Virus record (IMG/VR): IMGVR_UViG_3300030376_006915
Span: 1-43,584 of that record
Length of the DNA stretch: 43,584 nucleotides
Strand: one strand, 5' to 3'
Source of the DNA: a virus
Taxonomy: Duplodnaviria > Caudoviricetes
The notes beneath the pieces are model-generated. The model ran no database searches. It was not told the DNA's origin and saw nothing but the letters and a program-made list of their open reading frames with translations. Within the stretch, counting starts at the first letter, position 1. Every line of letters begins with the position of its first letter. Shown in pieces: positions 3,532-35,503 of this stretch. The position numbers and the translations under genes are program-made.

Positions 3532-3563
3532 ACGGACCCAACACGGATACCGAATGATATTAT
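3532..3563 (+). promoter_or_regulatory. Early promoter-like motif, copy 5 (upstream of the operon containing the sigma gene)
   Basis: ACG gacccaac ACG gataccgaa TGATA ttat. Confidence 0.7.
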
Positions 3564-4201: not shown

Positions 4202-4424
4202 CTTTACACCCTCGCCTGTTGCAATGCTTTTCAATAAACGAAAGGCAAAGCACAGAGCGTATGTAGGATCTCGCGTATGGGAACTGCATGATGAAATTAG
4301 CTGTATAACATTTAATCTGGATAAAATGCCGGATGCTGACGCGAATGAAATAATTGATGAAATCAAAAATAAATTGTGGTTTTTAAGAAAATATCAGCGT
4401 TATTACAGGTTATTAATAACGTGA
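4191..4424 (+). CDS. Hypothetical protein (77 aa)
   Basis: ORF track. Confidence 0.65.
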   Translation: MKINFTPSPVAMLFNKRKAKHRAYVGSRVWELHDEISCITFNLDKMPDADANEIIDEIKNKLWFLRKYQRYYRLLIT

Positions 4425-4465
4425 CAATAGGTACAATAATTAATATAGTAGCACGCAAATGTCGC
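4421..4465. promoter_or_regulatory. 45-bp dyad, copy 2, overlapping the start codon of the HTH gene
   Basis: GTGACaaTAGG...GCAAatGTCGC with the same spacing as 26-70. Confidence 0.5.
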
Positions 4466-5133
4466 ACGAAAGAAACCTTGATTATTTAAATAAACACAGA
4501 ATAGTTTATAGGAGAGATCCTATCTTTGATGAACCAAATGAAGAAACAAAAGAATATAAACTTTATACAAACGGTACTCACGAGTGTTATGAACTGTTTA
4601 GAAGTAAAGCTAAAATAACTTCTTTTAAATCTTTAAAGTGGCATTTGCTTGTGCTATGGTATTTAAATGATCACATAACAAAAAGTATGTTTTTAAAATT
4701 AGGAAAGCACATTACTAACAAGTCAAACGGATTTATTACATTCGTAATAGATGAGGACAGATTAGTAAACATAGTTGAAAGCCTGTGGTCAAAAGATTTA
4801 GACAAACCTCCTAAGAATAGATTAAGAAAAATTATATTCAAAGATAGTTGCAAACTTGATCGTATTGAAAAGCTTAAGCTTGTAGGTAAAGTATTAGGGC
4901 GAGGAAAGAAAGCAAGTGAAAGCGATATGTATGAAGCAATGCTATACATGCACGACGTAGGTAAAAAAATTACCGTTAAATCTTTAGCTACACAACTACA
5001 AGTAACTACACGTACCATTTTTAGGAACATGAGTAGCTCTTTAAAAGAGGAGAAGCAAAGATTAAACGATGAAACATTACAGTGTAAAAAACTACATACG
5101 TTACAAAGAACAGTTAACAGAAAGGTTATTTGA
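4459..5133 (+). CDS. DNA-binding protein with C-terminal helix-turn-helix (possible replication initiator or regulator)
   Basis: KITVKSLATQLQVTTRTIFRNM is HTH-like; basic protein. Confidence 0.65.
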   Translation: MSHERNLDYLNKHRIVYRRDPIFDEPNEETKEYKLYTNGTHECYELFRSKAKITSFKSLKWHLLVLWYLNDHITKSMFLKLGKHITNKSNGFITFVIDEDRLVNIVESLWSKDLDKPPKNRLRKIIFKDSCKLDRIEKLKLVGKVLGRGKKASESDMYEAMLYMHDVGKKITVKSLATQLQVTTRTIFRNMSSSLKEEKQRLNDETLQCKKLHTLQRTVNRKVI

Positions 5134-5830
5134 AGAATGTTGCAACTCCGAAACATCACGAGAAGATTTAATAGAATGCGCAAGACCTCTAGTCGAAGCG
5201 GTAGCATGGAAGTTTGTACTAACGTACCAAGCGTCGGGAGTGATGTCGATACTAGATCTAATACAGGAAGGTACAATAGGTTTGATAAACGCCGTAGACA
5301 GAATAGATTGGGACAAGGTTTATGGGACAGCGAAACCGGGAGAAGAACCACTTATGGTAAAAGGTTTTTTGAAGAAAAGAATAAAAGGTTCAATAAGAAG
5401 GGCGATCGATATAAACAGGGGAAGCATGAGGATACCGGAGCACAGGTTAAACGAAATCAGGAAGAACAGCAGCAACAAGGAAATGGTAAAAGTATTTTTC
5501 GACAGTATCTTTGTAAGTCTAGACGTCAACACTTCTACAGACGCAAATATTTTATTACAAATTCCAGACAACTCTACTACGTACAACATAAATATTTTAA
5601 ATCAATACTTAATGGGGTTAATGAGATTATATTTAACAGAAACAGAGTACAACGTACTGCGAATGAGTTATGGTTTAGATTGCGACAAGCTAAGCGCAAA
5701 AGAAATATCAGAAAAGCTGGGTATAAAAGGCTCAGCATCTTACGTAAGAGTATCACAAATAAAAAAAGACGGGATCGACAAACTAATAAAAAACGTTGAA
5801 CCAGAACAGGTTGTTGATTATTTAAGTTAA
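5069..5830 (+). CDS. Phage RNA polymerase sigma-70 family factor
   Basis: Region 2 (PLVEAVAWKF...LDLIQEGTIGLINAVDRID...IKGSIRRAI, MRIPEH) and region 4 (LTETEYNVLRMSYGL...SAKEISEKLGI...RVSQIKKDGIDKL). Confidence 0.9.
   Translation: MKHYSVKNYIRYKEQLTERLFEECCNSETSREDLIECARPLVEAVAWKFVLTYQASGVMSILDLIQEGTIGLINAVDRIDWDKVYGTAKPGEEPLMVKGFLKKRIKGSIRRAIDINRGSMRIPEHRLNEIRKNSSNKEMVKVFFDSIFVSLDVNTSTDANILLQIPDNSTTYNINILNQYLMGLMRLYLTETEYNVLRMSYGLDCDKLSAKEISEKLGIKGSASYVRVSQIKKDGIDKLIKNVEPEQVVDYLS
5137..5799 (+). CDS. Possible overprinted basic protein (220 aa), in frame with 4459-5133 after a single TGA
   Basis: 220 stop-free codons in the -1 frame of an AT-rich gene. Confidence 0.3.
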   Translation: MLQLRNITRRFNRMRKTSSRSGSMEVCTNVPSVGSDVDTRSNTGRYNRFDKRRRQNRLGQGLWDSETGRRTTYGKRFFEEKNKRFNKKGDRYKQGKHEDTGAQVKRNQEEQQQQGNGKSIFRQYLCKSRRQHFYRRKYFITNSRQLYYVQHKYFKSILNGVNEIIFNRNRVQRTANELWFRLRQAKRKRNIRKAGYKRLSILRKSITNKKRRDRQTNKKR

Positions 5831-5831
5831 C

Positions 5832-5863
5832 ACGAGCCGAACACGAGTATAAGTTGATATATA
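5832..5863 (+). promoter_or_regulatory. Early promoter-like motif, copy 6
   Basis: ACG agccgaac ACG agtataagt TGATA tata, ending just before ATG 5868. Confidence 0.7.
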
Positions 5864-7336: not shown

Positions 7337-7367
7337 ACGGGCTCAACACGAAGCAGTAATGATATAA
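7337..7367 (+). promoter_or_regulatory. Early promoter-like motif, copy 7
   Basis: ACG ggctcaac ACG aagcagtaa TGATA taa, upstream of the primase-helicase. Confidence 0.7.
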
Positions 7368-9193: not shown

Positions 9194-9448
9194 ATGGGTA
9201 CTTATAGCTCAACGCGTCTTGAAAATAAAGCATGGGACTATTGTGTAAAAAACAATATAAGAATATTTCCTGTGTGTGTAGAAAACGGAAAATCGTGGAA
9301 AGTTGGTATAAACTTAGGTCCTTATAAAAAAGGAGAAAAACCAAACTTATCACCTGATGTATATGGTCCCGGTGAAATACAAAAACAAATATATAAAGCA
9401 AGTATTTATTATTATAATAAGTACGAATTGAACACGAAAACCAATTGA
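9194..9448 (+). CDS. Hypothetical protein (start 9194 preferred over 9122)
   Basis: ORF track 9122-9448; the in-frame ATG at 9194 avoids overlap with the helicase. Confidence 0.65.
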   Translation: MGTYSSTRLENKAWDYCVKNNIRIFPVCVENGKSWKVGINLGPYKKGEKPNLSPDVYGPGEIQKQIYKASIYYYNKYELNTKTN

Positions 9449-9454
9449 TAATAA
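9423..9454 (+). promoter_or_regulatory. Early promoter-like motif, copy 8 (upstream of the nucleotide-metabolism operon)
   Basis: ACG aattgaac ACG aaaaccaat TGATA ataa. Confidence 0.7.
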
Positions 9455-13806: not shown

Positions 13807-16800
13807 TTAATTTGAACTTGGTTTTACTTTTGTTTCACTAGGCAACGCTTTAGATTCAGATGGTAAAGAAAGTATTGAAGATGGTCCTCCTACAGTTTTT
13901 GGCGTTTGAGGAAGTAATTCATATTCTGACCAACCTAAAAACATAGCTACTCTCACCCAATTGTCATAATCAGAATTTAATGCTCCTAATATGTTTTCTG
14001 TTTTTCTTAGTAATCTATCTAGTGGTATGTTTACAAGAGCTGCTGCTTCTGCCGCCCCAACTAATGCTGGAGGAAACCTACTATCGTATTTACCTGCCTC
14101 TGCGGCTGCTTCTGCTTTTCTTTGTTTATGACTAATAGGTGGTGATATAGAAAGCAACGCGTCTGATATTTCGCCGTAATCTGCAAAAAATTGATTTTCT
14201 TTATTTTTTAATTGATAATATTTTAAACCAGCATCTTTAACAGCAGCTAAAACAGCCCCACTCATACCTGTACCTCTTAATACACTATTTGCCATATTGT
14301 TATACATTCTAGTATATTTTGCAGTTTTAAATTTCTTTTGGGATTCAGTTAATTCTTCATCATCAAACATTGCCGCTAAAATTGCATTTTGTAAAGCATT
14401 AAACATATAGTTTTGAGCAGCTAAATAATAAACAACTTTAGAAACATTTGTTACAGGATCTCCTCTTCTATTTATAAGATCTTGTAAAGCTCTTTTACCA
14501 ATACGTGTATATTGAAAAGGTGTATTACCAAAAGCAAAAATTAAACGACCTAAGTTAGTTGCTTGTATTTCACTAATTCTTGAAGGGTCTGAAGACTGTT
14601 GAGATTCATTTGATATTTGTCTCCAATCTTGATACGCTTTTTCTTCTGCTTTTTCTGTAGTTAATCCTGATTTTATATAAGAGTTTATTCTGTTTCTAAA
14701 GAACGGAGCACCACCAAATGAAATAGCTAAACTATCTGCAGCTTGTGTTGGCGTAAACCCTATTCTTAATAAATATGAAGTAGCGGCTAATATTGGGTTT
14801 TTACTTCTAGTAACAGCATCCATTAATTCTGATTCTTGAATATTTATTTTTAACCCTTTCCTTCTACTAACTAAATAATCTGAATAAAATAACTTTTTAA
14901 AATCTTTAGCAAATTGAGGAGCATTTAAAAAAGCTTTACTAGCTGCTAAAGGATTGTTATCAGACCAGTTTATAAAGTTTACAGCAGAAATAGTTTGTAA
15001 AGTAGCAGAGCGCATGTTAAAAAACATAATAGTCCCTACAGACCCATTTATAAAGTCTTGATACATGTCTACTGTTTTATCCCCTGAAGGCTTTCTATTT
15101 GTACCTGATTTCATTCTAGCAATAGTTTTATCTAAAGTGTCAATAAAATCAGAGCCAAACGCTGCTGTTAATTTAGCTCTATTTGTAGGGTTTAATATAA
15201 TTTCTAAATTGTTACTCCATGCGCTTAAAGCTTTAGGTCTTTTTACTTTGCTAATGCTGTTTGCTAAATCAATTCCAATATTACCTCTTTGCCAATTTGA
15301 TTCTGGCTTTATATATCCTTTTTTCCCAACAGCTCTTGTTAAACCAAAAGCAAAGCTTCTTAAATCAGGATTACCTTCAATAAACTTTACTAATTTATTT
15401 AAATTGGTTTTTGAAAGCTTTGGTATGTCATGCCCAGAGTTTTGAAAAGCATATATTCTAATAGCGTCTTGAACAGTAAACATAGGTAAATCTATTTCAT
15501 CTAATTTTTTAGTTAGTCGTTGGGGAGAAGTTCTAAGTTTTTTCTTTAATTGCTTAAAAGCTTCCATTGTTTCTAAACGCTCTGTTTCTAATTGAGAAAC
15601 CCCTGTTGTATATGGGTCTATTAATAATTCTTTTAATAATTTTAAATCAGAAGTTCCTTGCTCCCCTTTACCAGCTAAGTTATATAATAGTCCTTGCCAA
15701 TCTTCTGCATTATAAGGAATAGACAATTGACCAAATATACCTCTATTGTATGCGTTAGCTTTTTCACCTAATCTTTCTGCTATTGCTAAATCTTTACCAC
15801 TTTTAACTGATTGAGCTCGTGTACTTTTACGGTCAATCATATCTTTTATTAATTTAGATTTTGCTTGTGCTCTTTTTGTTGTTGAAAGTTTTAAGTTATC
15901 ATTTGCTTTATTTTGAGATTGTTTTAAAATCAAACCTTCAGCATCAATATTTAAATCATCTCTTAAAATTATTTCTGATGCAAATAGATTTTTTATATCA
16001 CTTATGCTTTTTCCTTCAATGTTATTTTTAATATAATCTAAATTATTTTGCGAGTACTCTTTTATATATTTTTCTGTTACAAAAGTTTTCTTTACAGTAG
16101 CTACACGCTCATTTAATTTTCTATTTAAACCAGCTAAAATATCGCCATTATTAACTATAAAAGTTTTATATAATCTATTTATAGAATCATTATTACTTTT
16201 TGTGTAATTATTGTTTTTAAGTTTTTGTAAATATTTTTTATAGCTATTTTCTGTTTTAGGCAGTTTATTAAAGTCTTCTTTAATTTTTAATGTTTCATTG
16301 TAACCTTTTTCTTTTTCTTTTAATGTACTTTCGTTTTTTAAATTTTGATTATATTCTTTTGTGGCTCTTTGTACTCCTTCAACAATAGAAACTTCATTAA
16401 TTCTATCAATTAATGATCCTTCTGCAGCTCTAACAGAAGCGGCTTCAAATACATATTTCCAAAAATGAGTTAATGCTACAGCGGTGTTATTATCTTTAGT
16501 TTCTTTACTAAAATTATCAATAACTTCTTTATAATTTTTTTCTGTAGCTGCTTTATATTTAGCTAAAAACGGAATTAAATATTTTTTTTCAAAAACACTT
16601 GTAGCTGGTTGATGCTCTATATAAAACCCTAAGTTTATATTTTGAGGAATATTGGTAGCTATTGTAGTAGCAGTAGCTTTAATATTGCTTTGGGTTGCAC
16701 CATGACTACTTGCTGCAAAAACAAGCCCTGTTAATTTGTTAAGCAATCCTAATTTTCTTGACGCTTCTTGTCCTGCTTCGTTTAATGGGTTTTTATTTAT

Positions 16801-19800
16801 TGTTTTCTTTAAGTTTAATTCTGCAACTTTTAATTCTTTTAAAGAACTGTTTAATAAACTAATTCCATAATTTACACCTTTATCTTGGCGTTTAGCTTCA
16901 TTAATTCCTATTTTTTTATAACCTTTATTAGGGTTTTGCGTATCTTCTAGTCTTAACGATTTTTTATATTCTTCTGTGTTTGTGTCTTGATTAAATCTAT
17001 TTTTTTGAGCCGAGGATAAAGTTTCATCCGGATATATCAATTTAACATAATGATTTATTCCCCCCGCGTTAGCAGCCCATAATTCTTTCAACGCAGAGTC
17101 TTCGCCCATTTCTTCTATAATAGATTTAATCGTACTTCTTTCTTCAGCATTAAATAAATAATCTCTATCTAATTTTTTTGATGCTTTTAATAATCCATTT
17201 GTTGCAAGTTGCCCTGATTCAAACCCAAATTCATTTTCAATATGTTGTACATTATATGTAGGCTCAACAACTTTTCTATTTTTTAAATCATAACTATTTA
17301 GCTCATTCTTTATAGTTTTAATATTTGTAATTGAAAACTTTAAACTTTCTTCTGGAGCTATTGCTTCTTCAAAAGCGTTACCTAATAGTTTACCTGATTT
17401 ATATTGTTTTACTACTTCCGGCATACCGGCTTTTATAATTTCTTGAAGACTTGGATCACTATCAATTTTTCTTTGTAATGTAATACTGTATTTAGTAAAT
17501 CTTCCTCTTTGTATGTTCATTTCAAACTCCTGAATAAATTCATTTATTTCAGTTTCTTGAGTAAGAGGTATTTTTTCTAAAGTTGCGGGGTTGTTTAAAG
17601 CTTGCATTGATTCATCAAAAGCTATTTCTTTTGCAAGAGTATTTATTACAAAAGCTTTTCTTTGAGCATGATTAGAATGTTTTACTCCAAATTCAGATAT
17701 AAACGCTTTTTCAACTTCAGCCCAAGGCTTCTTTTTAAATACTAAATTACCAGCATAAGATTTTTTACCAGTAAAGCTTTCTAATACTCTTACAGGTTTT
17801 CCGTCTTTATCAAATTGTTGTTCTAAAAATAAATTTTTTAAAGCTTGACTTTTTGCTAAATCGCCTAAAGGCATTATTTCATACAAAGCTTCCGCATTTA
17901 ATTTAATATAACCATAATAATCTGTGTTATTAAAAGCGCGTAATTCAGTAGACACATCTTCATAAAGCATGTTTCTTACAGCTATTTTATATTTTTCCCT
18001 AAAGTTCTTACCTTTTTTAATATCAATTTGAGGAAGCATTGTTCCTAATGTTTTTGTAGCCGCCTCTAAAGCTTTTATTTGTAGTTCATTTGAAAGATTT
18101 GCTCTATCTAAAATGTTTCTTTTTTCTTGAGTTTTTGCTACTTCAAGTTCTTTTTCTTGTATTTCTTCTCTTTCTACTTGCTCTGGTAGTGTTTCTTGTG
18201 CGGCAACATCTACTCTTTCAGTTACATCATCAGTAAATTTTTGACCAAATAAATCGCTTGCGAATGCATTCATTCTTAACGGAAGTAATCTTCCAACATA
18301 ACCAGACAGCGTACCACGCCCGTCAAAGCTGTTTATAAGGTCTATAACGCCTCCTTTTTGATAAAGAGCATTCTGTATTAAGTCTTCTTTTAAAACGCTA
18401 AAATCAGGCACGTTTTTATATTTTTGAGACAGCTTAGTTACTAAAGGCTCATACATCATGGCTATTTGAAAAGCACCATCTCCTTTGCTATACGCATCAT
18501 CAATTTCTTTTGCTGTTGTTTTACTAAATTTAGTTCCCAATGTTTTACTTACAACTTTGTTTAAAACGTTTTCAAGTTTTACAGGGGCTTTACCATAATG
18601 AGCACTTTTATTAAAATCTTTTACAAAATTAAATACACCCTCCCCTTCATTATCTTTAAACTTAAATTTAGTTGGTAAATAATTGTTTACAAATTTTCTT
18701 ATAGCATTTAATGAGTTTGCTTTTACAAATTGGCCGTCTGCTATAACATCTGACATAGCGTTCATAGCCTCTTCATAATAGTTTTCGTTTTCAACTATTT
18801 CACCTTCAGGGTTTTGCTCCCTATAACTTTGATCTATTCTAAATTTTACACGAGCATGTAAATCTTTGTCGTTTCTTTTTAAATAAGCTAATAAATCTTT
18901 TCCTGCTTGTGTAACATTATCAGTACCATATTTAATTTTTGCTTGTATATGCAATAACTCGTGAGCAAACACACCTATTCTTTTGTTTTTAACTGCATTA
19001 GGCATGTGAACTATTACTGTGTTTCCTTCTTGCATAGCCTCTAACTCACCGTCTTCTAAAGCCTTTTTAGCTTTCGTTATATCAGCTTGTGTTGCTCCCG
19101 CATCCTTTAATGCTTGTATAGTTTGTTCTACTGTCTCTGTTTTTACAAAGTTTACATCAAGCCCATTGCTTTTTGCATAAGACTTAGCATTAGCCTCTCC
19201 TTTTTCAATTTTTTCTTTATAAGCATTATCTATGTAATTTTTATAAGCTTGATCTTTTATTTGTTTTTCTGTTAATCTAGCGTATGGAGTTGCATCTTTT
19301 CTTAAATCTTTTTTAGCTTGATTGTATAAAGATTGTTTGGATGTTTTACTTAAACTATTATATTGATCAAGCAAATTTAATTCACTGTTATTAAGCATAC
19401 GAGCTTCATACATTTGATACCCTAAAGTTGAGTCAAATTTAACAGCTGTAGCATCTGCAAGAGCTCTTGTTTCTTCTTGTAAGTCTTTATCTGTTAATAT
19501 ATTTTCTCTTCTTTCAATTAAATTATCATATCTTGCTTCTAATTCTTTTTTTGCGGCATCTAATTCTGCAGGTGATAAATCAGTGTTAAAACTTAATTTT
19601 GAAAATCTATCATTGATTTTTCTCATTTCCCTGTTTAACTCTCCTATTTCATAAGCTTGCTCAATACTAATATCCTTTCCTAATCTTGCTACTATATTAA
19701 ATTTTATAGCACTCATTTCTCCTGTTAATTCTTCAATTAGTTCTTGAACTTCAGGATTTTTAGTTGGCATTTTAATATTACCATCAGGTGCATTTTCAAG

Positions 19801-22023
19801 CGAAGTAATACCCGTAAGCTCTCTTAGCTTTTGAGTAATTTCTTTCATTCTAGTATATTCAGATCTTGTAGCTAAAGACATTGCAACAGCTTCATTTACC
19901 GCTTTAGCAACCGGTGCCCCTGCAATTCCAGTACCCATCAATGCTCCTTGCGCAAACGATTCTAATCCTCCTTCAAATAAATTTTTATCTTCTCCTAATA
20001 TAAATATATCACCAAAGTTTTGAGTTAATGTAGTTGCAAGCTCTGAACCTCCCTCTTTACCAAAACCTTTACTAAGTTGTGTTCCTGCAAATTTAAATCC
20101 CTCTTTAATTGTAGTAGGTGGTAAACTTTTTAGAGCTGATTTAACACCTTTTAATAATGATAATGTACCTAATCTTTCAAATACTACTTCAGATATTGCA
20201 TATAATCCTTGTAAGCCTATTTGTTCTATGTTAGATAAATTTAAAGTTTCTTTATCCTTTTTCATTTGGCTTTCAATCTCTACTCTTTGTTCGTCTGAAA
20301 CTCCTTCTGCTAAAAGTTTTTCATTAGCTATCATTCTTTCTACTGCATTTTTTTGATTTATAGCAATATCAATACCTGCGCCTCCAGCTCCTGATAATCC
20401 AAATAAAGGCAAAGCAGCTGGTCCCGTAAAAGCCATAGTCAAAGAGGGTATTAAATTTGTGCTTGATCCAGCAACCCACCTACCAAAATCTTTTGTTGTT
20501 TTAACCTCGCTTATTTCAATAGGTCTTTGAAACGATTCTGTTTCTTTTTTCATTCTTTCCGCGAGTGTAACAATACCTGTTTGACTTTCAAGCATTTTGT
20601 TTCTTTGAGCAGGAGTACTTTGGCGAGCAATAGACGACATTGCTTGTGCTTCGCTCGTTCCCATTCCTGATACTTGAGCAATTTGAAGAGTAGTATATAA
20701 TATGTCTGTACCTAAGCTTTTAAAACTAGTTCTTAATTGTTCTAATCTATTATAGTTAGCTAAAAAGTCACTTACAGCTAATGGCAAAAATTCTTTTTCT
20801 TTAGCGCTTGTAGATAGTGCTATTTGTTTTTCTTGAAGCCTATTAGTTTCTTCTATAAATTTTATTTGTAAGTTTTTAGCTTTTGCGTGTAGTTCGCGAG
20901 AAGTTGGGTTTGCTAAAAAGTTTTTTATTGCTTTTTCTAAAACAGGGAGGGATATTTTTTCATGAGTATTATAATCTTTTTCAAATTGATTTACAGATTT
21001 TTCTAACTCATTTTGTTCTGACCAAGCTATTGCTCCTAAGTCTTTTCTTTGCGTAGAGTTTAAATTATATGCAAAATCATCAGACTTGTTTGAAGCATAT
21101 TTTGTTTTTTTCTCTTGCTTTAATTCTTCTAATTCTTTTTCAGTATAATCAGGCATTACGCCATCTTCTTTAAATTTTAAATAACGCGCTTTATCTTTTT
21201 CATTTCTAAAAGGAAGTTCTTTTTTAAAAGTAGTAGTAGCTAATGGGTCAACACCTGTTTTGAATTGAAATGCTCCTAAATCTCCTCCTTTTTCTTTTTG
21301 ACTATTTTCAATATCTATAAACTTTTCATACCTTGTTAATTCATCAAAAAGTATATTATCATCACTAAGCTCAGTGTCAGCTATTGAAATATTTTTTAAA
21401 TATTCTTCATATAATTCAGAATTACCTTCTTTATTACGCGCTATTTCAGTGTAGTTTTTATTTCCGTTAGTATTTAAAAAGTCATTTAAAACTTTAGCTT
21501 GTCTTGCTAAATATTCTGGTGATTGCTTAGGACCTACTTTAATTCTTCCTGTTTCAACTAAATCTCTTCTACCTGATCCATATCCTTCACCTGGAATAAA
21601 TCTACCACTACCAGAAGATAATATAATTCCGTTTCCTATATTAGCTTCATCTATTTCAATACCTAAACTATTAAGCTGACCTTTAAATTTAGAGTTTATA
21701 TCCTCTTCATTTTCTAAAAGATCTTCAGCTTTAAAATAATCTATATATCCTTCTGGCTTATCCTTTTGTACAGGCGGTTTTGCAATCGGAGCTACAAGTC
21801 TTTGTGATTCCGATAAAGAAGTTCCCGAGGCTAACCCCGAAGCGGCTGCCACGTTTCTTGGTGCTACAGTTGCAGCTGGTCTTGCAACACCCTTTGTCTT
21901 TTCCAAGCTTAGAAGCTTTTGTTTTTCGGCTTCTACTCTTTTTTTAATTTCTTCTTCTGACAAACCTTGATCAACAAGATCGCTTAGTAAAGCATATAAT
22001 TTTTGTTTTATTTCTTCGCTCAT
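13807..22023 (-). CDS. Giant virion cargo/ejection polyvalent protein (2738 aa) with a zincin HExxH motif and a sigma-region-2-like segment
   Basis: Position after the tail and pilot genes; AHELLH (aa 1021) plus downstream YEEAM; G/A-rich membrane-like segments; YEPLVTKLSQKY...EDLIQ...FDG. Confidence 0.75.
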   Translation of the reverse strand: MSEEIKQKLYALLSDLVDQGLSEEEIKKRVEAEKQKLLSLEKTKGVARPAATVAPRNVAAASGLASGTSLSESQRLVAPIAKPPVQKDKPEGYIDYFKAEDLLENEEDINSKFKGQLNSLGIEIDEANIGNGIILSSGSGRFIPGEGYGSGRRDLVETGRIKVGPKQSPEYLARQAKVLNDFLNTNGNKNYTEIARNKEGNSELYEEYLKNISIADTELSDDNILFDELTRYEKFIDIENSQKEKGGDLGAFQFKTGVDPLATTTFKKELPFRNEKDKARYLKFKEDGVMPDYTEKELEELKQEKKTKYASNKSDDFAYNLNSTQRKDLGAIAWSEQNELEKSVNQFEKDYNTHEKISLPVLEKAIKNFLANPTSRELHAKAKNLQIKFIEETNRLQEKQIALSTSAKEKEFLPLAVSDFLANYNRLEQLRTSFKSLGTDILYTTLQIAQVSGMGTSEAQAMSSIARQSTPAQRNKMLESQTGIVTLAERMKKETESFQRPIEISEVKTTKDFGRWVAGSSTNLIPSLTMAFTGPAALPLFGLSGAGGAGIDIAINQKNAVERMIANEKLLAEGVSDEQRVEIESQMKKDKETLNLSNIEQIGLQGLYAISEVVFERLGTLSLLKGVKSALKSLPPTTIKEGFKFAGTQLSKGFGKEGGSELATTLTQNFGDIFILGEDKNLFEGGLESFAQGALMGTGIAGAPVAKAVNEAVAMSLATRSEYTRMKEITQKLRELTGITSLENAPDGNIKMPTKNPEVQELIEELTGEMSAIKFNIVARLGKDISIEQAYEIGELNREMRKINDRFSKLSFNTDLSPAELDAAKKELEARYDNLIERRENILTDKDLQEETRALADATAVKFDSTLGYQMYEARMLNNSELNLLDQYNSLSKTSKQSLYNQAKKDLRKDATPYARLTEKQIKDQAYKNYIDNAYKEKIEKGEANAKSYAKSNGLDVNFVKTETVEQTIQALKDAGATQADITKAKKALEDGELEAMQEGNTVIVHMPNAVKNKRIGVFAHELLHIQAKIKYGTDNVTQAGKDLLAYLKRNDKDLHARVKFRIDQSYREQNPEGEIVENENYYEEAMNAMSDVIADGQFVKANSLNAIRKFVNNYLPTKFKFKDNEGEGVFNFVKDFNKSAHYGKAPVKLENVLNKVVSKTLGTKFSKTTAKEIDDAYSKGDGAFQIAMMYEPLVTKLSQKYKNVPDFSVLKEDLIQNALYQKGGVIDLINSFDGRGTLSGYVGRLLPLRMNAFASDLFGQKFTDDVTERVDVAAQETLPEQVEREEIQEKELEVAKTQEKRNILDRANLSNELQIKALEAATKTLGTMLPQIDIKKGKNFREKYKIAVRNMLYEDVSTELRAFNNTDYYGYIKLNAEALYEIMPLGDLAKSQALKNLFLEQQFDKDGKPVRVLESFTGKKSYAGNLVFKKKPWAEVEKAFISEFGVKHSNHAQRKAFVINTLAKEIAFDESMQALNNPATLEKIPLTQETEINEFIQEFEMNIQRGRFTKYSITLQRKIDSDPSLQEIIKAGMPEVVKQYKSGKLLGNAFEEAIAPEESLKFSITNIKTIKNELNSYDLKNRKVVEPTYNVQHIENEFGFESGQLATNGLLKASKKLDRDYLFNAEERSTIKSIIEEMGEDSALKELWAANAGGINHYVKLIYPDETLSSAQKNRFNQDTNTEEYKKSLRLEDTQNPNKGYKKIGINEAKRQDKGVNYGISLLNSSLKELKVAELNLKKTINKNPLNEAGQEASRKLGLLNKLTGLVFAASSHGATQSNIKATATTIATNIPQNINLGFYIEHQPATSVFEKKYLIPFLAKYKAATEKNYKEVIDNFSKETKDNNTAVALTHFWKYVFEAASVRAAEGSLIDRINEVSIVEGVQRATKEYNQNLKNESTLKEKEKGYNETLKIKEDFNKLPKTENSYKKYLQKLKNNNYTKSNNDSINRLYKTFIVNNGDILAGLNRKLNERVATVKKTFVTEKYIKEYSQNNLDYIKNNIEGKSISDIKNLFASEIILRDDLNIDAEGLILKQSQNKANDNLKLSTTKRAQAKSKLIKDMIDRKSTRAQSVKSGKDLAIAERLGEKANAYNRGIFGQLSIPYNAEDWQGLLYNLAGKGEQGTSDLKLLKELLIDPYTTGVSQLETERLETMEAFKQLKKKLRTSPQRLTKKLDEIDLPMFTVQDAIRIYAFQNSGHDIPKLSKTNLNKLVKFIEGNPDLRSFAFGLTRAVGKKGYIKPESNWQRGNIGIDLANSISKVKRPKALSAWSNNLEIILNPTNRAKLTAAFGSDFIDTLDKTIARMKSGTNRKPSGDKTVDMYQDFINGSVGTIMFFNMRSATLQTISAVNFINWSDNNPLAASKAFLNAPQFAKDFKKLFYSDYLVSRRKGLKINIQESELMDAVTRSKNPILAATSYLLRIGFTPTQAADSLAISFGGAPFFRNRINSYIKSGLTTEKAEEKAYQDWRQISNESQQSSDPSRISEIQATNLGRLIFAFGNTPFQYTRIGKRALQDLINRRGDPVTNVSKVVYYLAAQNYMFNALQNAILAAMFDDEELTESQKKFKTAKYTRMYNNMANSVLRGTGMSGAVLAAVKDAGLKYYQLKNKENQFFADYGEISDALLSISPPISHKQRKAEAAAEAGKYDSRFPPALVGAAEAAALVNIPLDRLLRKTENILGALNSDYDNWVRVAMFLGWSEYELLPQTPKTVGGPSSILSLPSESKALPSETKVKPSSN

Positions 22024-22035
22024 AATATTAAAGTA

Positions 22036-24054
22036 TTAATTATCAAGCCCCAATATTTGAGCTAAGTTATATTTTTTACTTAAGTTTTCAATAAATGTTT
22101 CAAAGTCTTCTCCTCCTCTAGCATATGTATTTTCTAACTCTTGCGCTGTTATGGAAGTTCCATCAGGTTCAGTTATGTTCTCTAATTCAAATACTTTTTC
22201 ATATATATCGAACAAAGATGTTTTACCATTAGTTAATGTCATTTCAAGCGAAACTCCTTTAGAATCTTTAGCAATAGCGTTAGAATCAAATTTAAATATA
22301 CCAAACAACTCGCCATTTTCATCACGTTTATAATCACGTCTAGGATAATTTCCGTCTGCGTCCTTTTGTGTTGCTAAACTCATTTTTAAACCTAAATTTT
22401 CTGATAGCCATGATTCTGTTTGCGGAAATCCTGTTTCAGATAAATCTAATAACATTCTACCTGAATCATAAGCGTTTTCAGAATTATAAGATATTTTATC
22501 AAACGAATCTATAGCGCCTCTCATACCGGTTAATCTTCTGTTTCTTGCTGCTGCAAATTGAAGTTCTGTTCTAGTTGGTCCGGATTCACCTTTTACTGTA
22601 GGCGGTTTTTTACCTTGACTTATAGAGCTTAACTGTTCTTTTATTCCAGTACCTTTTGTAAAAGTATAACCTTTCACATCTTGATTATAAATAGCACTAG
22701 TAGTTCCCATATGTGTTAATTCATCTAATGTATATTCATGTACAATTTCAGCTAAATTAAACACCTGCCCCTCTTCAATATCTTGTAGGCGTATAGAATT
22801 ATTTATTTGAGAATCTCTTACTGCTGTTACGGTTGTAATATATTCTCCATTTTCATTTTTTCTATTTCGACCAGAAGTTATATCCAACGCTAACTGCTCA
22901 ATGTCCTTTTGTGTGTTTGCAAGCCCGTATTGTGCTGCAAGTTGTTTTGCAATTTTAATTGCAGCTGCTGAAACGTTTACTTTTGATCCATCACGAGCAG
23001 TAATTTCAGGATCTATTTCTGGATTTACTCTACCTGCCATTTCATCATCAAAAATTTTATCAAGCTTTACATCGTTTAAATCTATATTTAAAACTTTTCT
23101 ATAATCTTTTTGATATTGATCAAAATTTCTTATAGTTAAAACAGTTTTTATTTGCTTGTTTGGCCCATAACCCACTCCATTAGCATCTCTTAATCCGTTA
23201 TCTATAAGTTTTCCTTCTGCATCTCTTTCGCTACCGTATATTACATCTTGATCGCTGAGTGGCGTTATTCCTTTATTAGAAAATGTTCCATATCTTCTTC
23301 TTGCATTTAAATCATCTGCATCACCTACTATAATTTTATTAGCGTTTGTTAAAACATTAAATATTGTAGGACCTTCTCCCTTTGCTGCGGGTGTTCGTAA
23401 ATCTTCTCTAAGATTATAACCTGCTGCAATCAGTCCTTCAATTTCTTCTACAGTATACCCAGCGTATTCCCCTTTTTCACCTTCTTTCAACCTATCAAAC
23501 GCTTTTATATATGAAATTTTTAATTGACCCGTTTCAGGATCATCAACCATACTAAATCCGCTTTCATTAATTTCTTGAATTGAATCAATAAGCCCTAAAT
23601 AAGCAAGTTGATTTTCGTCTTGACTAAGTGATATTAATCTTCGTTTTTCAGGTGTCATATTTTGCGCTTCTTCCGCTACAGTTGTTAAAATATTACTTAC
23701 TCTATTAACTTTTTTTAATCTTTCTCTTTCGGATTTTTTTACATCTAGCTCTGTAAAATTTCTTCCTCTAGCGGCGTCTGCATACATTGTAGCTAAAACA
23801 GAAGCGTCATTAATAAAATAATTTTCTATAACATTGTCAAACTGGATATCTCCTGTGTCAACTATTGTGTCAATTTTTCCTTCTACATCAAAAAGATAAT
23901 TTTTACCTGCTTGAATACTTTCTTTTTGTTGTTTAATTTTTGCAAGTAAAGGGTCCATAACTTGTTTTACCAAAGCTGCTCCATATTGCATGTTTCTTGC
24001 AAATATTTCTCCGTAATTTGGGGGCGTAATTATTTGAGGATTCCTATAACTCAT
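22036..24054 (-). CDS. Putative internal virion (cargo) protein (672 aa)
   Basis: Long ORF between the pilot-like protein and the giant protein; function inferred from synteny only. Confidence 0.6.
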   Translation of the reverse strand: MSYRNPQIITPPNYGEIFARNMQYGAALVKQVMDPLLAKIKQQKESIQAGKNYLFDVEGKIDTIVDTGDIQFDNVIENYFINDASVLATMYADAARGRNFTELDVKKSERERLKKVNRVSNILTTVAEEAQNMTPEKRRLISLSQDENQLAYLGLIDSIQEINESGFSMVDDPETGQLKISYIKAFDRLKEGEKGEYAGYTVEEIEGLIAAGYNLREDLRTPAAKGEGPTIFNVLTNANKIIVGDADDLNARRRYGTFSNKGITPLSDQDVIYGSERDAEGKLIDNGLRDANGVGYGPNKQIKTVLTIRNFDQYQKDYRKVLNIDLNDVKLDKIFDDEMAGRVNPEIDPEITARDGSKVNVSAAAIKIAKQLAAQYGLANTQKDIEQLALDITSGRNRKNENGEYITTVTAVRDSQINNSIRLQDIEEGQVFNLAEIVHEYTLDELTHMGTTSAIYNQDVKGYTFTKGTGIKEQLSSISQGKKPPTVKGESGPTRTELQFAAARNRRLTGMRGAIDSFDKISYNSENAYDSGRMLLDLSETGFPQTESWLSENLGLKMSLATQKDADGNYPRRDYKRDENGELFGIFKFDSNAIAKDSKGVSLEMTLTNGKTSLFDIYEKVFELENITEPDGTSITAQELENTYARGGEDFETFIENLSKKYNLAQILGLDN

Positions 24055-24090
24055 ATTTTATATTTTTTTAAAATCTATATTTATTTTTTA

Positions 24091-26202
24091 TTAACCTGTA
24101 AATCTGCTAAAATCGTTATAAGCTCCTGTGTTTCCAGGTGTACTCCCACCACCACCACCGCCACCAAATGCTCCGCCGAAAAGACCGCCAGCTAATTGAA
24201 ATAAGCCTCCTGTTACAGCTCCTGATGTTGCAGCTTGCGCAGCTTGTGCAGCTTGTTGATTAACCATAGATTGTGTTGCTAGTCCTGATAATCTATCTAA
24301 GTTTCTTTGAGCCATATCAAATGCCATACCTTGTTGATATTGAACCCCCGCTACATCCGCTTGTCTTAATGATTGCTGTTCTGCAAGTTGTATATTTTGT
24401 TTTCTTATTGCTTCGGAAAGTTGAGCTTGCTGTATTCTACCTGCCTCTTGAAAACTAGTATCATCTACTCTTCTTGCTTCACCAAATCTAATTCCTTGCA
24501 ACCTTTGAGCTTCTGTTTGAGCAGCAGTATCTAATCTTAACCCCTCTCTTTCTCTTAAACTTTCTAGTCTTAATCTTTCAGAAAAAGCAATGTCCTGTAG
24601 CCTTTTGCTTTCATTCATTCTTATTTGTTCAACTTGTTGTTGCCCTTGCGCTCTTAATTGTGTATTTCTAGCTTCTTGTTGCTCAATCGTTGCTGAAATA
24701 CCTAATTTACTTTGTAAAGCTGCTTGTGCAATTGCGGTTGCTCCCCCTGCTCCAGCACCTGTTGCTCTAATGGTTGACAATGTATTTGCTAATGCTTGAT
24801 CTGTTTGTTGCGCTTGTAAATCTGCTGCTTGTGTAGCTACTTGTAAGTTTGCAAATGTATTAGAAGCTAAATCACTTGTGTCTGCAGCTAATCCAGAAAA
24901 ATCTTCTGCGCCCCTTCTTAAATCATTTAAATATCCTGTAGTAGGATCTACCATGTCAGATCTATCTCTTAATAATCTTCTTCTATCGTTTGCCCCTGTA
25001 AATATGTCGCTTCTATCTTGTATAATGCCACTTTTGTCACGAAATCTTCCGTATGGGTTTTTAATTTCACTGTCAGCATACAGCTGTCCTCCTAATTCTT
25101 CCATTTGCAATGCTTTTATAGAGCCTGCAAACCCTGGGGTTGAGCCCCCTGGTGTTCCTGTTCCTGTTCCTGTTCCGCTTTGTCCTGGTATTGTAAAACC
25201 TCCAGCTCCTGTTCCTGTTCCACCTGTAGAACCAGCTGTTCCACCTACACCTATAAAAACATTACTTTTAGTACCATCAGGGCTTAATAAATATCCATCT
25301 TCAGTTGTGACGCTTGCTAACGCTCCACCTTCTATTGCTGCTCTTCCTTTTGTTTCCATATCTTCTACAAAAGCAGCATTATCAAAGTTGCCTTCGTCGT
25401 CTATAAAAGGTTTTTTAGCTTCTTCCATAGAAGTTTGAATGGCTTCTTTAAATTCATCCGTATTTATTTGTTTTTTAAATTCTTCAGTAAAAAGATTATC
25501 AAAATCTAAAACAACATTACCTTCTGCGTCTCTTTCTACATCTTCAGTTTGTGTTCCAGTAAATTCAGCTTCTTCATCAAAATATTCACTATCCGGGTTT
25601 GTTGATTTATAGTTTGTTTTTTTAGCTATTTTATCAAAACCAGCTTGTAATTCCCAATACGGAACATCTAGTTTACCATTTCCTAATATATTAAACATAT
25701 CAAGGCTAGCTTGTATTTTCACAGGGTCTAAATCATTTAATAAAGAATTAGGGCCAAAAATGTCTGCTTGTTGCATTGCTTGCATTATTTCATTATTACT
25801 AAGCATTGTAGCAGCTGTTTCCGCAGTATTTCCTGCTGGAGTTTCTGTTGTTGATCCTCCTGCTAAGTCATTTTCTTCTTGAAACGGGAATTCTGTAAAT
25901 GCTGGAAGTTGGCTAAAAGGGCTATTACCCCCTAACATTAAAGACGGATCTTGCTCTAAAGATCTAGCTATAGTTCTCGTGCTTCCGGGCTGCACTGGAT
26001 TATCAAATTTTTCTGCATAAGATAAATATGCTTCTTTAGCTATTGCTGCATCTTCTTCCGCTTCTTCATATGCTTTTTTTGCTTTTCTTTTTTGACCAAT
26101 ACCATTTATAATACTAATAATACCTAGTCCTATACTAAGGGGGTCTACAGCCGCGTGTTGTAAAGTGTTAGCTACTTCTATTATTGTATATATTTCTTCC
26201 AT
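24091..26202 (-). CDS. Putative DNA-ejection/pilot protein (703 aa)
   Basis: N-terminal hydrophobic glycine helix, Q/A-rich coiled region with 11-aa repeats, Gly-rich C-terminal membrane-like segment. Confidence 0.65.
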   Translation of the reverse strand: MEEIYTIIEVANTLQHAAVDPLSIGLGIISIINGIGQKRKAKKAYEEAEEDAAIAKEAYLSYAEKFDNPVQPGSTRTIARSLEQDPSLMLGGNSPFSQLPAFTEFPFQEENDLAGGSTTETPAGNTAETAATMLSNNEIMQAMQQADIFGPNSLLNDLDPVKIQASLDMFNILGNGKLDVPYWELQAGFDKIAKKTNYKSTNPDSEYFDEEAEFTGTQTEDVERDAEGNVVLDFDNLFTEEFKKQINTDEFKEAIQTSMEEAKKPFIDDEGNFDNAAFVEDMETKGRAAIEGGALASVTTEDGYLLSPDGTKSNVFIGVGGTAGSTGGTGTGAGGFTIPGQSGTGTGTGTPGGSTPGFAGSIKALQMEELGGQLYADSEIKNPYGRFRDKSGIIQDRSDIFTGANDRRRLLRDRSDMVDPTTGYLNDLRRGAEDFSGLAADTSDLASNTFANLQVATQAADLQAQQTDQALANTLSTIRATGAGAGGATAIAQAALQSKLGISATIEQQEARNTQLRAQGQQQVEQIRMNESKRLQDIAFSERLRLESLREREGLRLDTAAQTEAQRLQGIRFGEARRVDDTSFQEAGRIQQAQLSEAIRKQNIQLAEQQSLRQADVAGVQYQQGMAFDMAQRNLDRLSGLATQSMVNQQAAQAAQAATSGAVTGGLFQLAGGLFGGAFGGGGGGGSTPGNTGAYNDFSRFTG

Positions 26203-26204
26203 AA

Positions 26205-27926
26205 TTAATTAGTTAATAATTCGTATTCACTTGATACCGCGAATAATTCTTTTGCTGAAGTGTCTGAAACACTAAGTTGTACTTTGTTAAAAAATCCTTT
26301 TACACCCGATATATCTCCACCAAACAATACTTCATTTGTTTTAGGTAAAGTTTCATTTACAATATACGAGTAATATTTGTTATCTTTCTTTTTAAATCCT
26401 GTTATCATTAAGTCTTGCCAAGTGTTTTCTGCACTAGCGCTTGTAGATACATAAGCCGGTATAAATGCGCCTTTGTCACTGTCTGTTTCAATAGATTTTA
26501 CTGACCATCCTGTATTGCCTTCATAATTTATAGTTCTAAAATACTTTGAAACTGAAGGAGGTTTGTTAAATATTAAATCAACAGTTGAAGCAATCGTAGA
26601 GTTTCCGTAAAAAGAGCCCCTGTTAGCATCTAAATCATAATGCTTATATAAATCATTTACGCCGTAAGTATAAAAGTCTGCATCTATACTTCCTCCAAAC
26701 GCAGGTTTATATCCATAAAATGATGACCAACCATTTATATCTTCATCAAATGTTACAGTTTGAAAACCACTTGTAAAATCTCTTAAGTGTATTGTTATTG
26801 TATCTCCTACAGGAGGTGCCGATGCCATAGTTACAACACCGGTTGAAGTGTTATATGTATAATCTGTATTTGCAGCTAATGCTGTTGTACCTCTACTTGT
26901 TTGAAATATTTCAATTTGAGATATGTTTGTAGGGTCAGGTAAATTAACTGTAGCAAAACTTGCGTCAACTATTGTAAATGCAAGTGAAATCGTAGTATCA
27001 CTCCCGTTTCCAATAAATGTATTTGTTACTAAATTTTCTTGTAATGATAGTACATATTTTTTTCTATTATTATCCCATATACCTATTATTGAATCCGCAA
27101 GCTTTAAATTTGTTTTAAAGTAATCTCGCATACCAAAATTAGATATTTCAGTTATACCATCTCTAGATAATCTTAAAACAACCCCGTTATTTTTATCTGT
27201 AAAATATTTTCTACCTGCATGGTAAGCAAAACTTTCGGGATTTTTACTTATACCATAATTACCTGTATATGCAACAACTTGACCTAATACTTGATCTGAA
27301 GACGTTACCTGAGGGTCTCCCTCTGCTGTAAATATAATGTCTTTATCTATAAGTATATTATGCACTTTGTTTTCTTGAAAAACATTTAAGTTATTATCTT
27401 CTGCAAATAATTTTTGTATTGATCCAAACGATGAATCAATTGATTTTGTATTAGGTATTGAAGGATTAAACTGATTTATTTGGTTTGTTCTTGTTCTTCC
27501 ATTGTATATACCTGAATATATAAGAGACGCTTCTCTTGTTTCTGGCGCATACTCATTATCTGTTATTGCCGCTCTTACCCCAAAGTCTACTGTTTTACCA
27601 TTAAATGCCCCTCGTATTCTTGACTCTTCTATATGCCAGCTTTTTACAACAACTAATATTGATTTATTATTATCAGGGGCTGATGTAAAAGTAATTACTC
27701 TTGTTTTGTTTTTATATGTATATCCTGACGCTGGTTGTAATTCATTATCAAAATATACTTGAAAATCCGCTTCTGAATTAGGTACTGCATATATAGTGTC
27801 CCCGCTAATTTCAGCAATAGTAAATGCAGTTGCACTCCCATTACCGGTTCCAATTACTTGATGCGTAACCTCAGAACTCTTTATAAGAAAGGTATTATAG
27901 TATTTTATTTCTAGTGTTACACTCAT
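26205..27926 (-). CDS. Tail tube/nozzle (stabilization) protein, C-terminal-type part
   Basis: IEESRI, LIYSGIYN, YGISKNPESFA, YFTDK..GVVLRLSRDG and GWSSF beta-propeller-like motifs; synteny. Confidence 0.7.
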   Translation of the reverse strand: MSVTLEIKYYNTFLIKSSEVTHQVIGTGNGSATAFTIAEISGDTIYAVPNSEADFQVYFDNELQPASGYTYKNKTRVITFTSAPDNNKSILVVVKSWHIEESRIRGAFNGKTVDFGVRAAITDNEYAPETREASLIYSGIYNGRTRTNQINQFNPSIPNTKSIDSSFGSIQKLFAEDNNLNVFQENKVHNILIDKDIIFTAEGDPQVTSSDQVLGQVVAYTGNYGISKNPESFAYHAGRKYFTDKNNGVVLRLSRDGITEISNFGMRDYFKTNLKLADSIIGIWDNNRKKYVLSLQENLVTNTFIGNGSDTTISLAFTIVDASFATVNLPDPTNISQIEIFQTSRGTTALAANTDYTYNTSTGVVTMASAPPVGDTITIHLRDFTSGFQTVTFDEDINGWSSFYGYKPAFGGSIDADFYTYGVNDLYKHYDLDANRGSFYGNSTIASTVDLIFNKPPSVSKYFRTINYEGNTGWSVKSIETDSDKGAFIPAYVSTSASAENTWQDLMITGFKKKDNKYYSYIVNETLPKTNEVLFGGDISGVKGFFNKVQLSVSDTSAKELFAVSSEYELLTN

Positions 27927-27956
27927 AGTTTTATTATTACGCTATTTTATTTATTA

Positions 27957-30900
27957 TTAAGGGTGACTCAACCCACAAGAAACTTGACCTGGCCACTTAA
28001 TTGCGCCATTGCTTCCAAACTCTATGTAGAACGTTTGGCTACCTAAATTAATATAGCTGTTAGAGCCAGTCCAAAAATATGTTCTTTGCACTCTATAATA
28101 CTTATCATTACCATCAAAAACAGATCCTTGTTGCGCTCCCTGTGTATGAGCCGCTTCAGGTGTTGTATAATATACATCTCCTATATTACGCCCTAAAGTT
28201 TTTGAATATATCTTATTAGCGCTACTTACAGCTATATCACAAATAGCTGGATAGCCATCACTTTCAAGCTCGTCTGATGGCACAGGGTATGTACTAGGGC
28301 CTGAATGAGGCCCGCTATACCAATATCCTATAATACCAGATGTTCCATCGTCTGTTATTCTTTTAACGTCAACAGTTATTGAATAAGCTGTTCCCCCTGT
28401 AGGGGTTGCTGTTAATGTAAATGAACCATTTTGTGCAGCTGTCCCTATTGAGCAAGTTCCACTAAATGATCCTGATGTACTAGTAGAAGGTGAATTTAAA
28501 GTTACACTTGATCCACTAACACTTGCATTTGAAATTGTAACACCAATATTTCCAGTTCCTACTATGTCAAAAGGTATACTTGTGTTAGCTGTGTTTCTGT
28601 TTACAGAATAATGTGTTCCTGCTCCCCCGCTTTGAATAGGCACTCCGTGTATTTTAATTCCTGTAACTGCGCTTGGTGTTCCAGTATTTGGTACCATTAC
28701 TACATTAGCTGAACCACTTGTATCACTACTTAATATTTTTGTTTTACCTGTTATTGAAAAACTACTATTACCGTTAGCCGAAGGTTTAGTAATTTGAAAA
28801 GGGCTATCCGCTGTGTGAGAAGTTACATGTATATAATTAGTTGTATTAGGTGTTTGATCACTATAAAATACTTCTGGGTCGGCAGTAAAGGTACCTGAAG
28901 ATGCTGTTATAGTTTTACTATCCATGTCAGCTAGCGAATTACTGACTGCTCCTGACAAACTTAATATCCCATTTCCTGATACTGTATATCCTACATTTAT
29001 CATATTAAGCTGTATTGCTGACACATATTGAGCTGCTCTTGTTATATTAACAGTAAAGCTTGAATTCATATTTCCATTTACATTTTGATTAGGGTTGGTT
29101 CCTGTAAAACCAATAGTTACAGTATTTCCATTATCAGTTTTCACAACAGTAAATCCTGAACCTCCTGCCCCTACAACAATCATATCCGGAGAAAGATTTT
29201 CTCCTGATTTAGAAACCGTAAACTGCATTTGATTTGTAAATGTTGAACCTATGTCACTTACTGCGTATGTATGAGTTTTTGAAACATTTCCTTGTGCACT
29301 CGAAGAAATACCTTCTACTGTACATCCATCAAAAGTTGAACTACCGCTAACAAAAGTCATTGTAAGGGTTGCGTTTTGATTACAAGCTGTTACATTTAAC
29401 GCCACTGTTGCTGATACCGAAGCATTTCCTTTTACAACTGTTATTGCTGATGCTGTACTTCCCGCCACACTTCCGTCTACAGTTGCTTTTTCATTAAATG
29501 CTGCTACTACTATACTTCCTGCGGAAGTTGTACCTGTTATATCATTACATGATCCTTGCCCTGTTAATCTTAATATATACCCGTTTACAATTGTAGCACT
29601 TATTTTTGAAGCTGTTGCTGAGTTACTTGTAATTTCAAAAAACTTACCATTTGTAAAGTAGTTTCTTAAATCTATGTCTGTTGAGCCCGTAATTTCAGTT
29701 GATTGAGTTGGTATACTACCAGTAGTCAATGTTGGCTGCACACTTGGTTGAACAATATTATATGTAAAGTCTGCGGCATTTGGATTTGTAAAAGTAGATC
29801 CTGGTGTTATATTTAATGTTAATGTTCTCAATGTTGCAACTGTAACAGTTGATATATTAGTTGCTGCCCCGTTTGTAAGCGCATTACCTGATAATGCAAC
29901 ACTATTTAAAGAATCCGCTCCTGGTTGAATTGTTCCTTGTGTAAATACAGCATTTTCTGCTATAGAAAATCCTGAAGGTATTGCGTTTACCGCTACTGTA
30001 TATGCTACTAAAGCTGGCGCTGCTGGTTGTATAACATTTCTTACTGCTGTATACAAATAATCTGATGAAGCAGAATTACTATATCCGCTTGTAGGTATCT
30101 GTATTCTTATAGTATTACTATTACTAGAATAAGTATTAGCTGAACCGTCAGATCTTCCTAAAGGTACTGATACTGTTTGTGTATTACTAGTATTAGCAGC
30201 TACTCCACTTGAAGGAGCATATAAAACTTGCGGTGAATTTCCTGCAACTGTTGTAACAGCCCCTGTATGAGCAACACTTATGCTACCTGTCCAGTCAGAA
30301 ACCTGAAATAATCCAAGTGCTGGCGTTGTAATTTGTATTGGCCCTTGTATATTTACTCCCTGTGAATTAGTTGCAAAAGCCCAAACATAAAATAATGTAT
30401 TTATTGTTGCATCACTCTTGGTGGTTGTAAATGTACCTGTACCGCTTCCTACTGAAACCGAGGTTGCATTAGCGAATACATCTGTAGTTCCTATTTTAAA
30501 TCCTCTTGCAGATACAGTTGCGTTTCCATTTGAACTTATTGTTGCAGACACCGTAAATGTTGCGGCTGAACTTGATGTAGATTCAGTTGATGTTAATGAT
30601 AAATCAGAAAATAATGGCACAGTTGTACTTAGCCCGCTAGTTGCTGGTTGTACAGCTGTTGTAGACATAATAATATTTTGACCCGCATTTGTATACCCAT
30701 TAGGAGCTGTTATAGTTAATTGTGCTGTTCTGGTTGTATTTGTGCTTACTGCAAAATAATTAAAACCTACAGTTTCATCTGCGTCTGTTGTTGCGTTAAC
30801 ATATACTACGGATTGTAATGAGCCAATATCAATTGTTGGCGCTGTAATAGCTCCATCTTCAGCTACTGCAAAATTTGATACTGTTACACTGGCTGAAGTA

Positions 30901-35451: not shown

Positions 35452-35473
35452 ATTATTATTTATTATAGCCTTA

Positions 35474-35489
35474 GGCCCACTTAAGGGCC
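35474..35489. terminator. Intergenic GC hairpin (terminator or RNA-stability element)
   Basis: GGCCC-acttaa-GGGCC in an AT-rich spacer; no clear U tract on the - strand. Confidence 0.4.
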
Positions 35490-35503
35490 ATGACTATTAT
35501 TTA

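Follow-up and report, generated by a model that had tools for sequence, protein, structure and literature searches.

Phages are known to start transcription from host promoters or by bringing along, in the particle, either a polymerase or an enzyme that modifies that of the host. The virion RNA polymerases of crAss-like phages and N4 (bioRxiv 2020.03.07.982082; PMC13434306) are described, in the available portions of those accounts, as giant ejected proteins that are linked to a zincin motif and start early transcription, and the N4 polymerase is described as packaged uncut. The polyvalent zincin MPTase proteins (Iyer et al. 2017, PMC5512222) are described as large modular proteins of the virion block with an HExxH motif and a distal Glu, swappable enzyme modules, and a proposed self-cleavage; a count of the word "sigma" in the main text of that paper, supplements aside, gave 0. 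The T4 late sigma factor gp55 (PDB 7D7C/7D7D; PMC7892883) is reported to be a diverged phage sigma-70 protein that has a region 2 domain only and binds the clamp helices. In the "group 2" Flavobacteriaceae phages (Nishimura et al. 2017, PMC5332604), which have phi38:1-like structural genes, a free sigma-70 gene was previously noted, and in phi14:2 a tripartite motif of middle promoters is described as read by the host polymerase. No report of a virion-borne sigma factor was found in a literature search whose scope lay outside most subscription papers.

Genome organization and relatives

The window, the whole 43,584-nt stretch analyzed here, is a whole, linear virus record that is 68% complete. 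Small genes, a sigma factor gene (5069 to 5830), and replication genes are encoded on the plus strand, and the terminase, portal, structural genes, a muzzle-like gene, two unannotated genes, and an open reading frame (ORF) of 2,738 aa are encoded on the minus strand. The portal protein matched those of Flavobacterium elemo, Maribacter Panino, and Cellulophaga phi38:1 and phi18:3 phages at 27 to 45%, and 12 of 19 genome-bin matches carried a Bacteroidota label. The phage fits the "group 2" Flavobacteriaceae phages, and the hosts of the phage family are likely bloom-associated Flavobacteriaceae.

The muzzle-like gene (26205 to 27926) contains a Crassvirus muzzle C-terminal domain above the Pfam cut-off, which links the tail to crAss-like architecture. 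Imperfect inverted repeats of the form GTGACA...TGTCRC surround AT-rich cores at the contig start (24 to 71) and before the gene at 4459 (4421 to 4467). Comparable repeats at the early/late divergence in three relatives (G006, G009, and G021) point to a possible operator or origin.

The giant protein and its sigma region 2-like module

The last gene of the virion block (13807 to 22023, minus strand) encodes the giant 2,738-aa protein, a likely ejected polyvalent protein. The whole protein had no match in Pfam or PHROGs, nor did a single-sequence search of the locus produce one. A family profile of the N-terminal region matched the giant virion proteins of elemo (3e-25), phi38:1 (6e-20), and phi18:3 (gp123; 3e-10), the last of which is annotated from virion mass spectrometry (MS). 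Based on synteny and on this N-terminal homology to MS-annotated gp123, the giant protein is likely packaged in the virion. Two unannotated genes directly upstream (22036 to 26202, minus strand; 672 and 703 aa) are syntenic with phi18:3 gp120/121, and their products are likely further ejection proteins. A conserved helical domain toward the C terminus (13909 to 15906, minus strand) was delimited by comparison of homologues.

A zincin-like metallopeptidase domain was placed at approximately aa 951 to 1145 (18589 to 19173, minus strand). A preliminary description of this DNA had noted an HELLH motif with a downstream EEA ligand, and both are where it placed them: HELLH is at aa 1021 to 1025 (18949 to 18963) and EEA at aa 1084 to 1086, with E1085 (18769 to 18771) as the third ligand. 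The H, E, H, and E1085 residues were invariant in all 42 aligned domains, and HExxH was present in 118 of 120 homologues. Profile searches of the domain against PDB and Pfam returned weak metalloprotease rows alone (E = 0.23 to 0.32), with Peptidase_M78 in 5 of the 42. The absence of a DxDxD RNA polymerase catalytic motif, also remarked on earlier, was borne out by a pattern search of the entire giant protein; of 120 homologues, 3 had the pattern, and there it lay in unrelated positions.

Iterated profiles delimited a module of ~345 aa (aa 1168 to 1512) after the zincin domain. The words at its N-terminal end (KFSK; 18520 to 18531, minus strand) and C-terminal end (KYSI; 17482 to 17493, minus strand) are candidate cut sites. 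At the C-terminal end, [FY]S[KRLIV] was found in 79 of 103 end windows, compared to a background of 4.8%, and a looser word was found at the N-terminal end in 21 of 81 start windows (background, 1.9%). In the AlphaFold prediction, an N-terminal domain and a helical C-terminal domain, both confident, are joined by an acidic linker that is disordered. Profiles, the predicted fold, and structure searches assign the first of these (aa 1168 to 1262; 18238 to 18522, minus strand) as sigma-70 region 1.2-2-like. The linker (aa 1263 to 1301; 18121 to 18237, minus strand; pLDDT of <50) appears to be placed like sigma region 3.2, as judged from the family sequences against the usual region 3.2 pattern. 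The helical C-terminal domain (aa ~1302 to 1507; 17503 to 18120, minus strand; pLDDT of ~90), modeled within the module, had no clear structural match, with no usable Atlas match and slight VIA coverage, which is not proof of a new fold.

The module was present in 67 of 69 giant proteins chosen by their C-terminal domain, a set with a few near-duplicates, many members of which had helped build the module profile. In total, 992 clusters at 50% identity matched the module. It was missing from the syntenic giant proteins of all five isolate or reference phages, which match the family N-terminal region, and neither the module nor the C-terminal domain had a tblastn match among 50,697 phage records. 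In some relatives (for example, P0045, P0089, P0104, and L050), the stretch that separates the sigma-like module from the C-terminal domain carries a swappable P-loop kinase and a HAD-like DFDDT module, both of which are missing from the window; a P-loop kinase was found in 4 of 17 scanned relatives and not in the giant protein of the window. In L013, L057, and L050, two ORFs take the place of the single giant gene, with the break after the module, and two copies (L091 and L093) lie on one 117-kb contig from a Flavobacteriaceae-labeled bin.

The sigma region 2-like peptide reported in the preliminary description was located at aa 1185 to 1251 (18471 to 18271, minus strand of ORF 13807 to 22023). 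Searches with Pfam Sigma70_r2 gave no match to this segment of the window even at E values of ≤10 and a single sub-threshold match among 56 relatives (E = 0.079; gathering score not reached). When the 56-sequence family profile was compared to PDB, sigma factors made up the top 8 rows (E = 0.014 to 0.061) and 22 of the 30 rows at E values of ≤10. The AlphaFold model of the domain had a pLDDT of about 96; of the checks suggested earlier, Pfam missed the domain, and AlphaFold predicted a region 2 fold. In VIA, sigma-containing entries filled the top 24 rows, with T4 gp55 ranking highest (Z = 8.3; rmsd, 3.9 over 94 residues), SigB at a Z of 7.8 (rmsd, 2.7 over 82 residues), and the first non-sigma entry at a Z of 5.7, where a Z of 8 is attainable by chance for helical bundles. 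Foldseek with the domain model listed sigma chains in 45 of 46 rows, all weak (E ≥ 0.65); with the two-domain model, the PDB list was without sigma and BFVD gave weak sigma rows only, a poorer result attributed to the flexible linker. Atlas language-model features placed the domain with sigma region 2 clusters at 0.93 to 0.94, at a recognition value that fell short of the threshold set for the tool. The A3 profile, searched against 1,636 ORFs, matched only free sigmas outside the giant proteins (1e-4 and 4e-4).

Residues mapped to sigma-70 through family-profile alignments and the usual residue assignments were conserved to different degrees among 71 divergent representatives. The aromatics of regions 2.2/2.3 (F1233 and Y1242) were kept in 93% and 93%, the region 2.4 Arg (R1250) was kept in 42, and conservation of the core-binding acidic positions was partial (D in 31, E in 23), which counts against a starter sigma. 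The alignment with the phage's own sigma that had been noted before is real yet weak (hhalign probability, 3.5 to 9.8%; E = 0.003 to 0.012), so the domain is not a recent copy. Taken together, tests that are singly insignificant yet agree confirm, at the family level and beyond chance, a predicted sigma-70 region 1.2-2 fold at aa 1168 to 1262. Searches of Pfam, VIA, and Atlas found no match to region 4 for the giant protein or the module (with the module C-terminal domain modeled within the module), in line with the earlier statement that no clear region 4 was present.

Complex prediction of the domain with a Flavobacteriaceae beta-prime clamp, taken from Flavobacteriaceae-labeled bins as a stand-in host, gave an ipSAE of 0.39, compared to 0.00 for the best control, with run agreement of at least 97% and a partner pLDDT of at least 72. 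Of 157 solved pairs, 116 came up to the ipSAE mark, as did 2 of 215 mismatched pairs, but those that did so at ≤0.60 comprised only 18 of the solved pairs and both mismatches. The multimer check proposed with the original claim is accordingly a weak pass: clamp docking is weakly predicted above the control, but the score may reflect memory of solved sigma-clamp complexes.

Early and late promoter motifs

The ACG-ACG-TGATA motif of the preliminary description is real, with 7 strict matches in the window compared to a mean of 0.03 and a maximum of 1 in 100 shuffles. A weight matrix placed eight sites, all on the plus strand, at 159 to 189, 801 to 831, 1553 to 1583, 2295 to 2325, 3532 to 3562 (the last upstream of the sigma gene), 5832 to 5862, 7337 to 7367 (before the primase-helicase), and 9423 to 9453. 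A tRNA-Met gene (2425 to 2497) lies within the early region directly after the fourth site. Clade-wide, 159 sites were found in 25 of 29 records, with the consensus ACAAAnTAAATACGA-N8-GATAAT; the window and G001 have a common variant, ACGR..ACGR..TGATAT. The motif consists of three blocks, of which TTTACA and GATAAT resemble -35 and -10 elements, and its GAT and C are invariant across the clade. The four records without it contain little or no early region in the record or stretch, and none was found in 50 kb of each of five outside isolate or reference phages.

The free-standing sigma (5069 to 5830, plus strand; 253 aa) contains regions 2 and 4 (PF04542 and PF04545, both above the Pfam cut-off). 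It was found in 16 of 18 near-complete relatives, with both misses ending inside the early block, and was absent from all five outside isolate or reference phages. The equivalent of a conserved gene with a weak helix-turn-helix match (4459 to 5133, plus strand) always immediately precedes it in relatives and is a candidate co-factor, activator, or replication initiator. The sigma gene appears split or shortened in G035 (65734 to 66500) and G029 (35351 to 35968), where assembly error is possible, and a 220-aa Arg/Lys-rich frame overlapping it in the window (5137 to 5799) is probably a shadow ORF.

A second motif class, TAA-N16-GTRATWAT at intergenic sites of the late strand, is new in this analysis. 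In the window, it occurs as TAA-N16-GTAATAAT before the muzzle-like gene (27933 to 27959, minus strand), where the TAA doubles as the upstream stop codon. TAA was found at -19 in 16 of 32 GTRATWAT sites (other offsets, at most 5; control core, 3 of 51). Because this offset was first spotted in part of the training set, a test on held-out loci was made, in which TAA was at -19 in 16 of 36 sites; the other strand had 4 sites. After removal of 11 cases in which TAA was a stop codon, 22 of 57 sites retained TAA at -19. These sites are not independent, with 39 of 68 at two orthologous junctions, among 19 downstream families, and genome-wide searches without the intergenic filter gave no spacing peak. 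The late spacing is that of the sigma-28 pattern, TAAA-N15-GCCGATAA, and would suit the 253-aa free sigma as its reader. Both motif classes contain RATAAT, so one reader could serve both. The RNA runs consist of contigs only, mostly 90 to 95% alike, in which start sites are not readable.

The cascade proposed in the preliminary description needs two promoter classes, and both were found: the separate late motif replicates, and in 20 of 22 records the gene for the free sigma is preceded by early sites. With early sites in that position, something must act before the free sigma.

Proposed mechanism and comparison with known systems

The reading that we tentatively favor is an injected, protease-freed starter sigma. 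We infer that the giant protein would be packaged and ejected with the DNA and that cuts at K-F/Y-S sites, with the zincin alongside, would free the sigma-like module. The freed module, its fold and clamp docking being model predictions, would attach to the clamp of the host polymerase and open promoters of the early class until the free sigma of the phage was made, which would then serve the late class; the fast-changing C-terminal domain of the module may stand in for region 4. We lean to this reading because the two sigma-like proteins and the two promoter classes are found in company and are missing in company and because the gene for the free sigma follows the early class. The complete scheme is more doubtful: an injected sigma of new build (region 2, an acidic finger, and an unrelated DNA-binding domain for region 4) would read a three-block early promoter and the free sigma a sigma-28-spaced late promoter, as a virion-started two-sigma cascade in a very large clade of marine flavobacterial phages. 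The original proposal is partly supported, by the predicted sigma region 2 fold, the conserved zincin, candidate cut sites at both module ends, the lack of an RNA polymerase catalytic motif and of a region 4 match, and the two promoter classes; the co-variation of domain and motif that it suggested as a check was not seen.

Motif distance was not correlated with that of the sigma-2-like domain (Mantel r = -0.09, P = 0.70; 18 genomes) or the whole module (r = 0.02), in a comparison that left out 11 of 29 records (those with under 4 sites or with a marker that was split or missing) and had low power, with module similarity saturated and some module ends approximate. It was best predicted by the conserved C-terminal domain (r = 0.61), probably a proxy for relatedness. 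The sole positive of 28 main tests, the central ATACG block versus the module C-terminal domain (r = 0.35, P = 0.004), was not significant after correction. Median identity was 23% for the sigma-2-like domain, compared to 60% for the free sigma, and close relatives with domains only 17% (G017/G029) and 20% (G002/G018) identical have nearly unchanged motifs.

Such divergence, with modules swapped and the motif unchanged, would also be expected of a sigma mimic or decoy that binds the host clamp or a host anti-sigma and displaces host sigmas, leaving the host holoenzyme and then the free sigma to read phage promoters. We regard this as less likely than a starter sigma, but it and the host-read model below are the main rivals. 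The lack of a detected region 4 favors it, the clamp-binding prediction fits it equally, and motif distance follows that of the free sigma (r = 0.39) more closely than that of the module, but the correlation with the free sigma is gone once relatedness is controlled for (partial r = 0.02). Across the family, the aromatics of the melting region are conserved, as is a long folded C-terminal domain, and a pure decoy would block the host polymerase that early genes require.

Less probable again is that the host primary sigma reads the early promoters and the free sigma the late ones, with the module serving, for example, to hold incoming DNA or activate the host holoenzyme. Host reading has a precedent in phi14:2, and the TTTACA and GATAAT blocks and the clade-wide invariance of GAT and C suit a fixed host reader. 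The Bacteroidota promoter element has the consensus TAnnTTTG. This element is missing from the early motif, which moreover differs by genome (the window and G001 versus the rest) and was not found in the 50 kb searched in each of the five related phages without the module. That both classes are read by the free sigma, made from a weak host promoter, with the virion domain left as a relic or as a structural part, is improbable: RATAAT in both classes, conservation of the free sigma, and some early sites downstream of it are consistent with this, but the upstream architectures of the two classes differ, and a relic is not expected to persist between conserved boundary words in 67 of 69 proteins and across about 990 clusters. 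A chance helical bundle, to which individually insignificant searches, Z values of ≤8.6, and the Pfam miss might point, is highly improbable given that sigma comes out on top with the sequence profile, with the language-model features, and with both structure aligners and that conserved residues are where they would be expected.

If the starter sigma reading is true, a packaged sigma would be another route to start transcription, spread over about 990 clusters at 50% identity, and a virion-started cascade would be an alternative to virion RNA polymerases; if the module is a decoy, it would still represent a kind of injected effector that is new. With the 345-aa module, the two defined motifs, and a host family that can be cultured, these readings are testable in vitro without phage isolation.

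Compared to the "group 2" account (PMC5332604), of which the available portion mentions neither a domain within the giant protein nor promoter motifs, this phage has both sigma-like proteins, and the cultured relatives are without them. Its early genes share a motif, whereas those of phi14:2, as far as they are described, do not. In contrast to the crAss-like and N4 virion RNA polymerases, as described in the available portions, the giant protein has no DxDxD motif, and early transcription would need the host polymerase and be rifampicin-sensitive. gp55, by its available description, is a free protein that is made during infection and needs gp33 and gp45, whereas the module lies inside a 2,738-aa structural-block protein beside a protease, has its own second domain of 200 aa, and would act first; a gp55-type promoter has a -10 element only, whereas the early motif has three blocks. 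By analogy, the module would be a putative sigma factor built like gp55 and timed like a virion polymerase.
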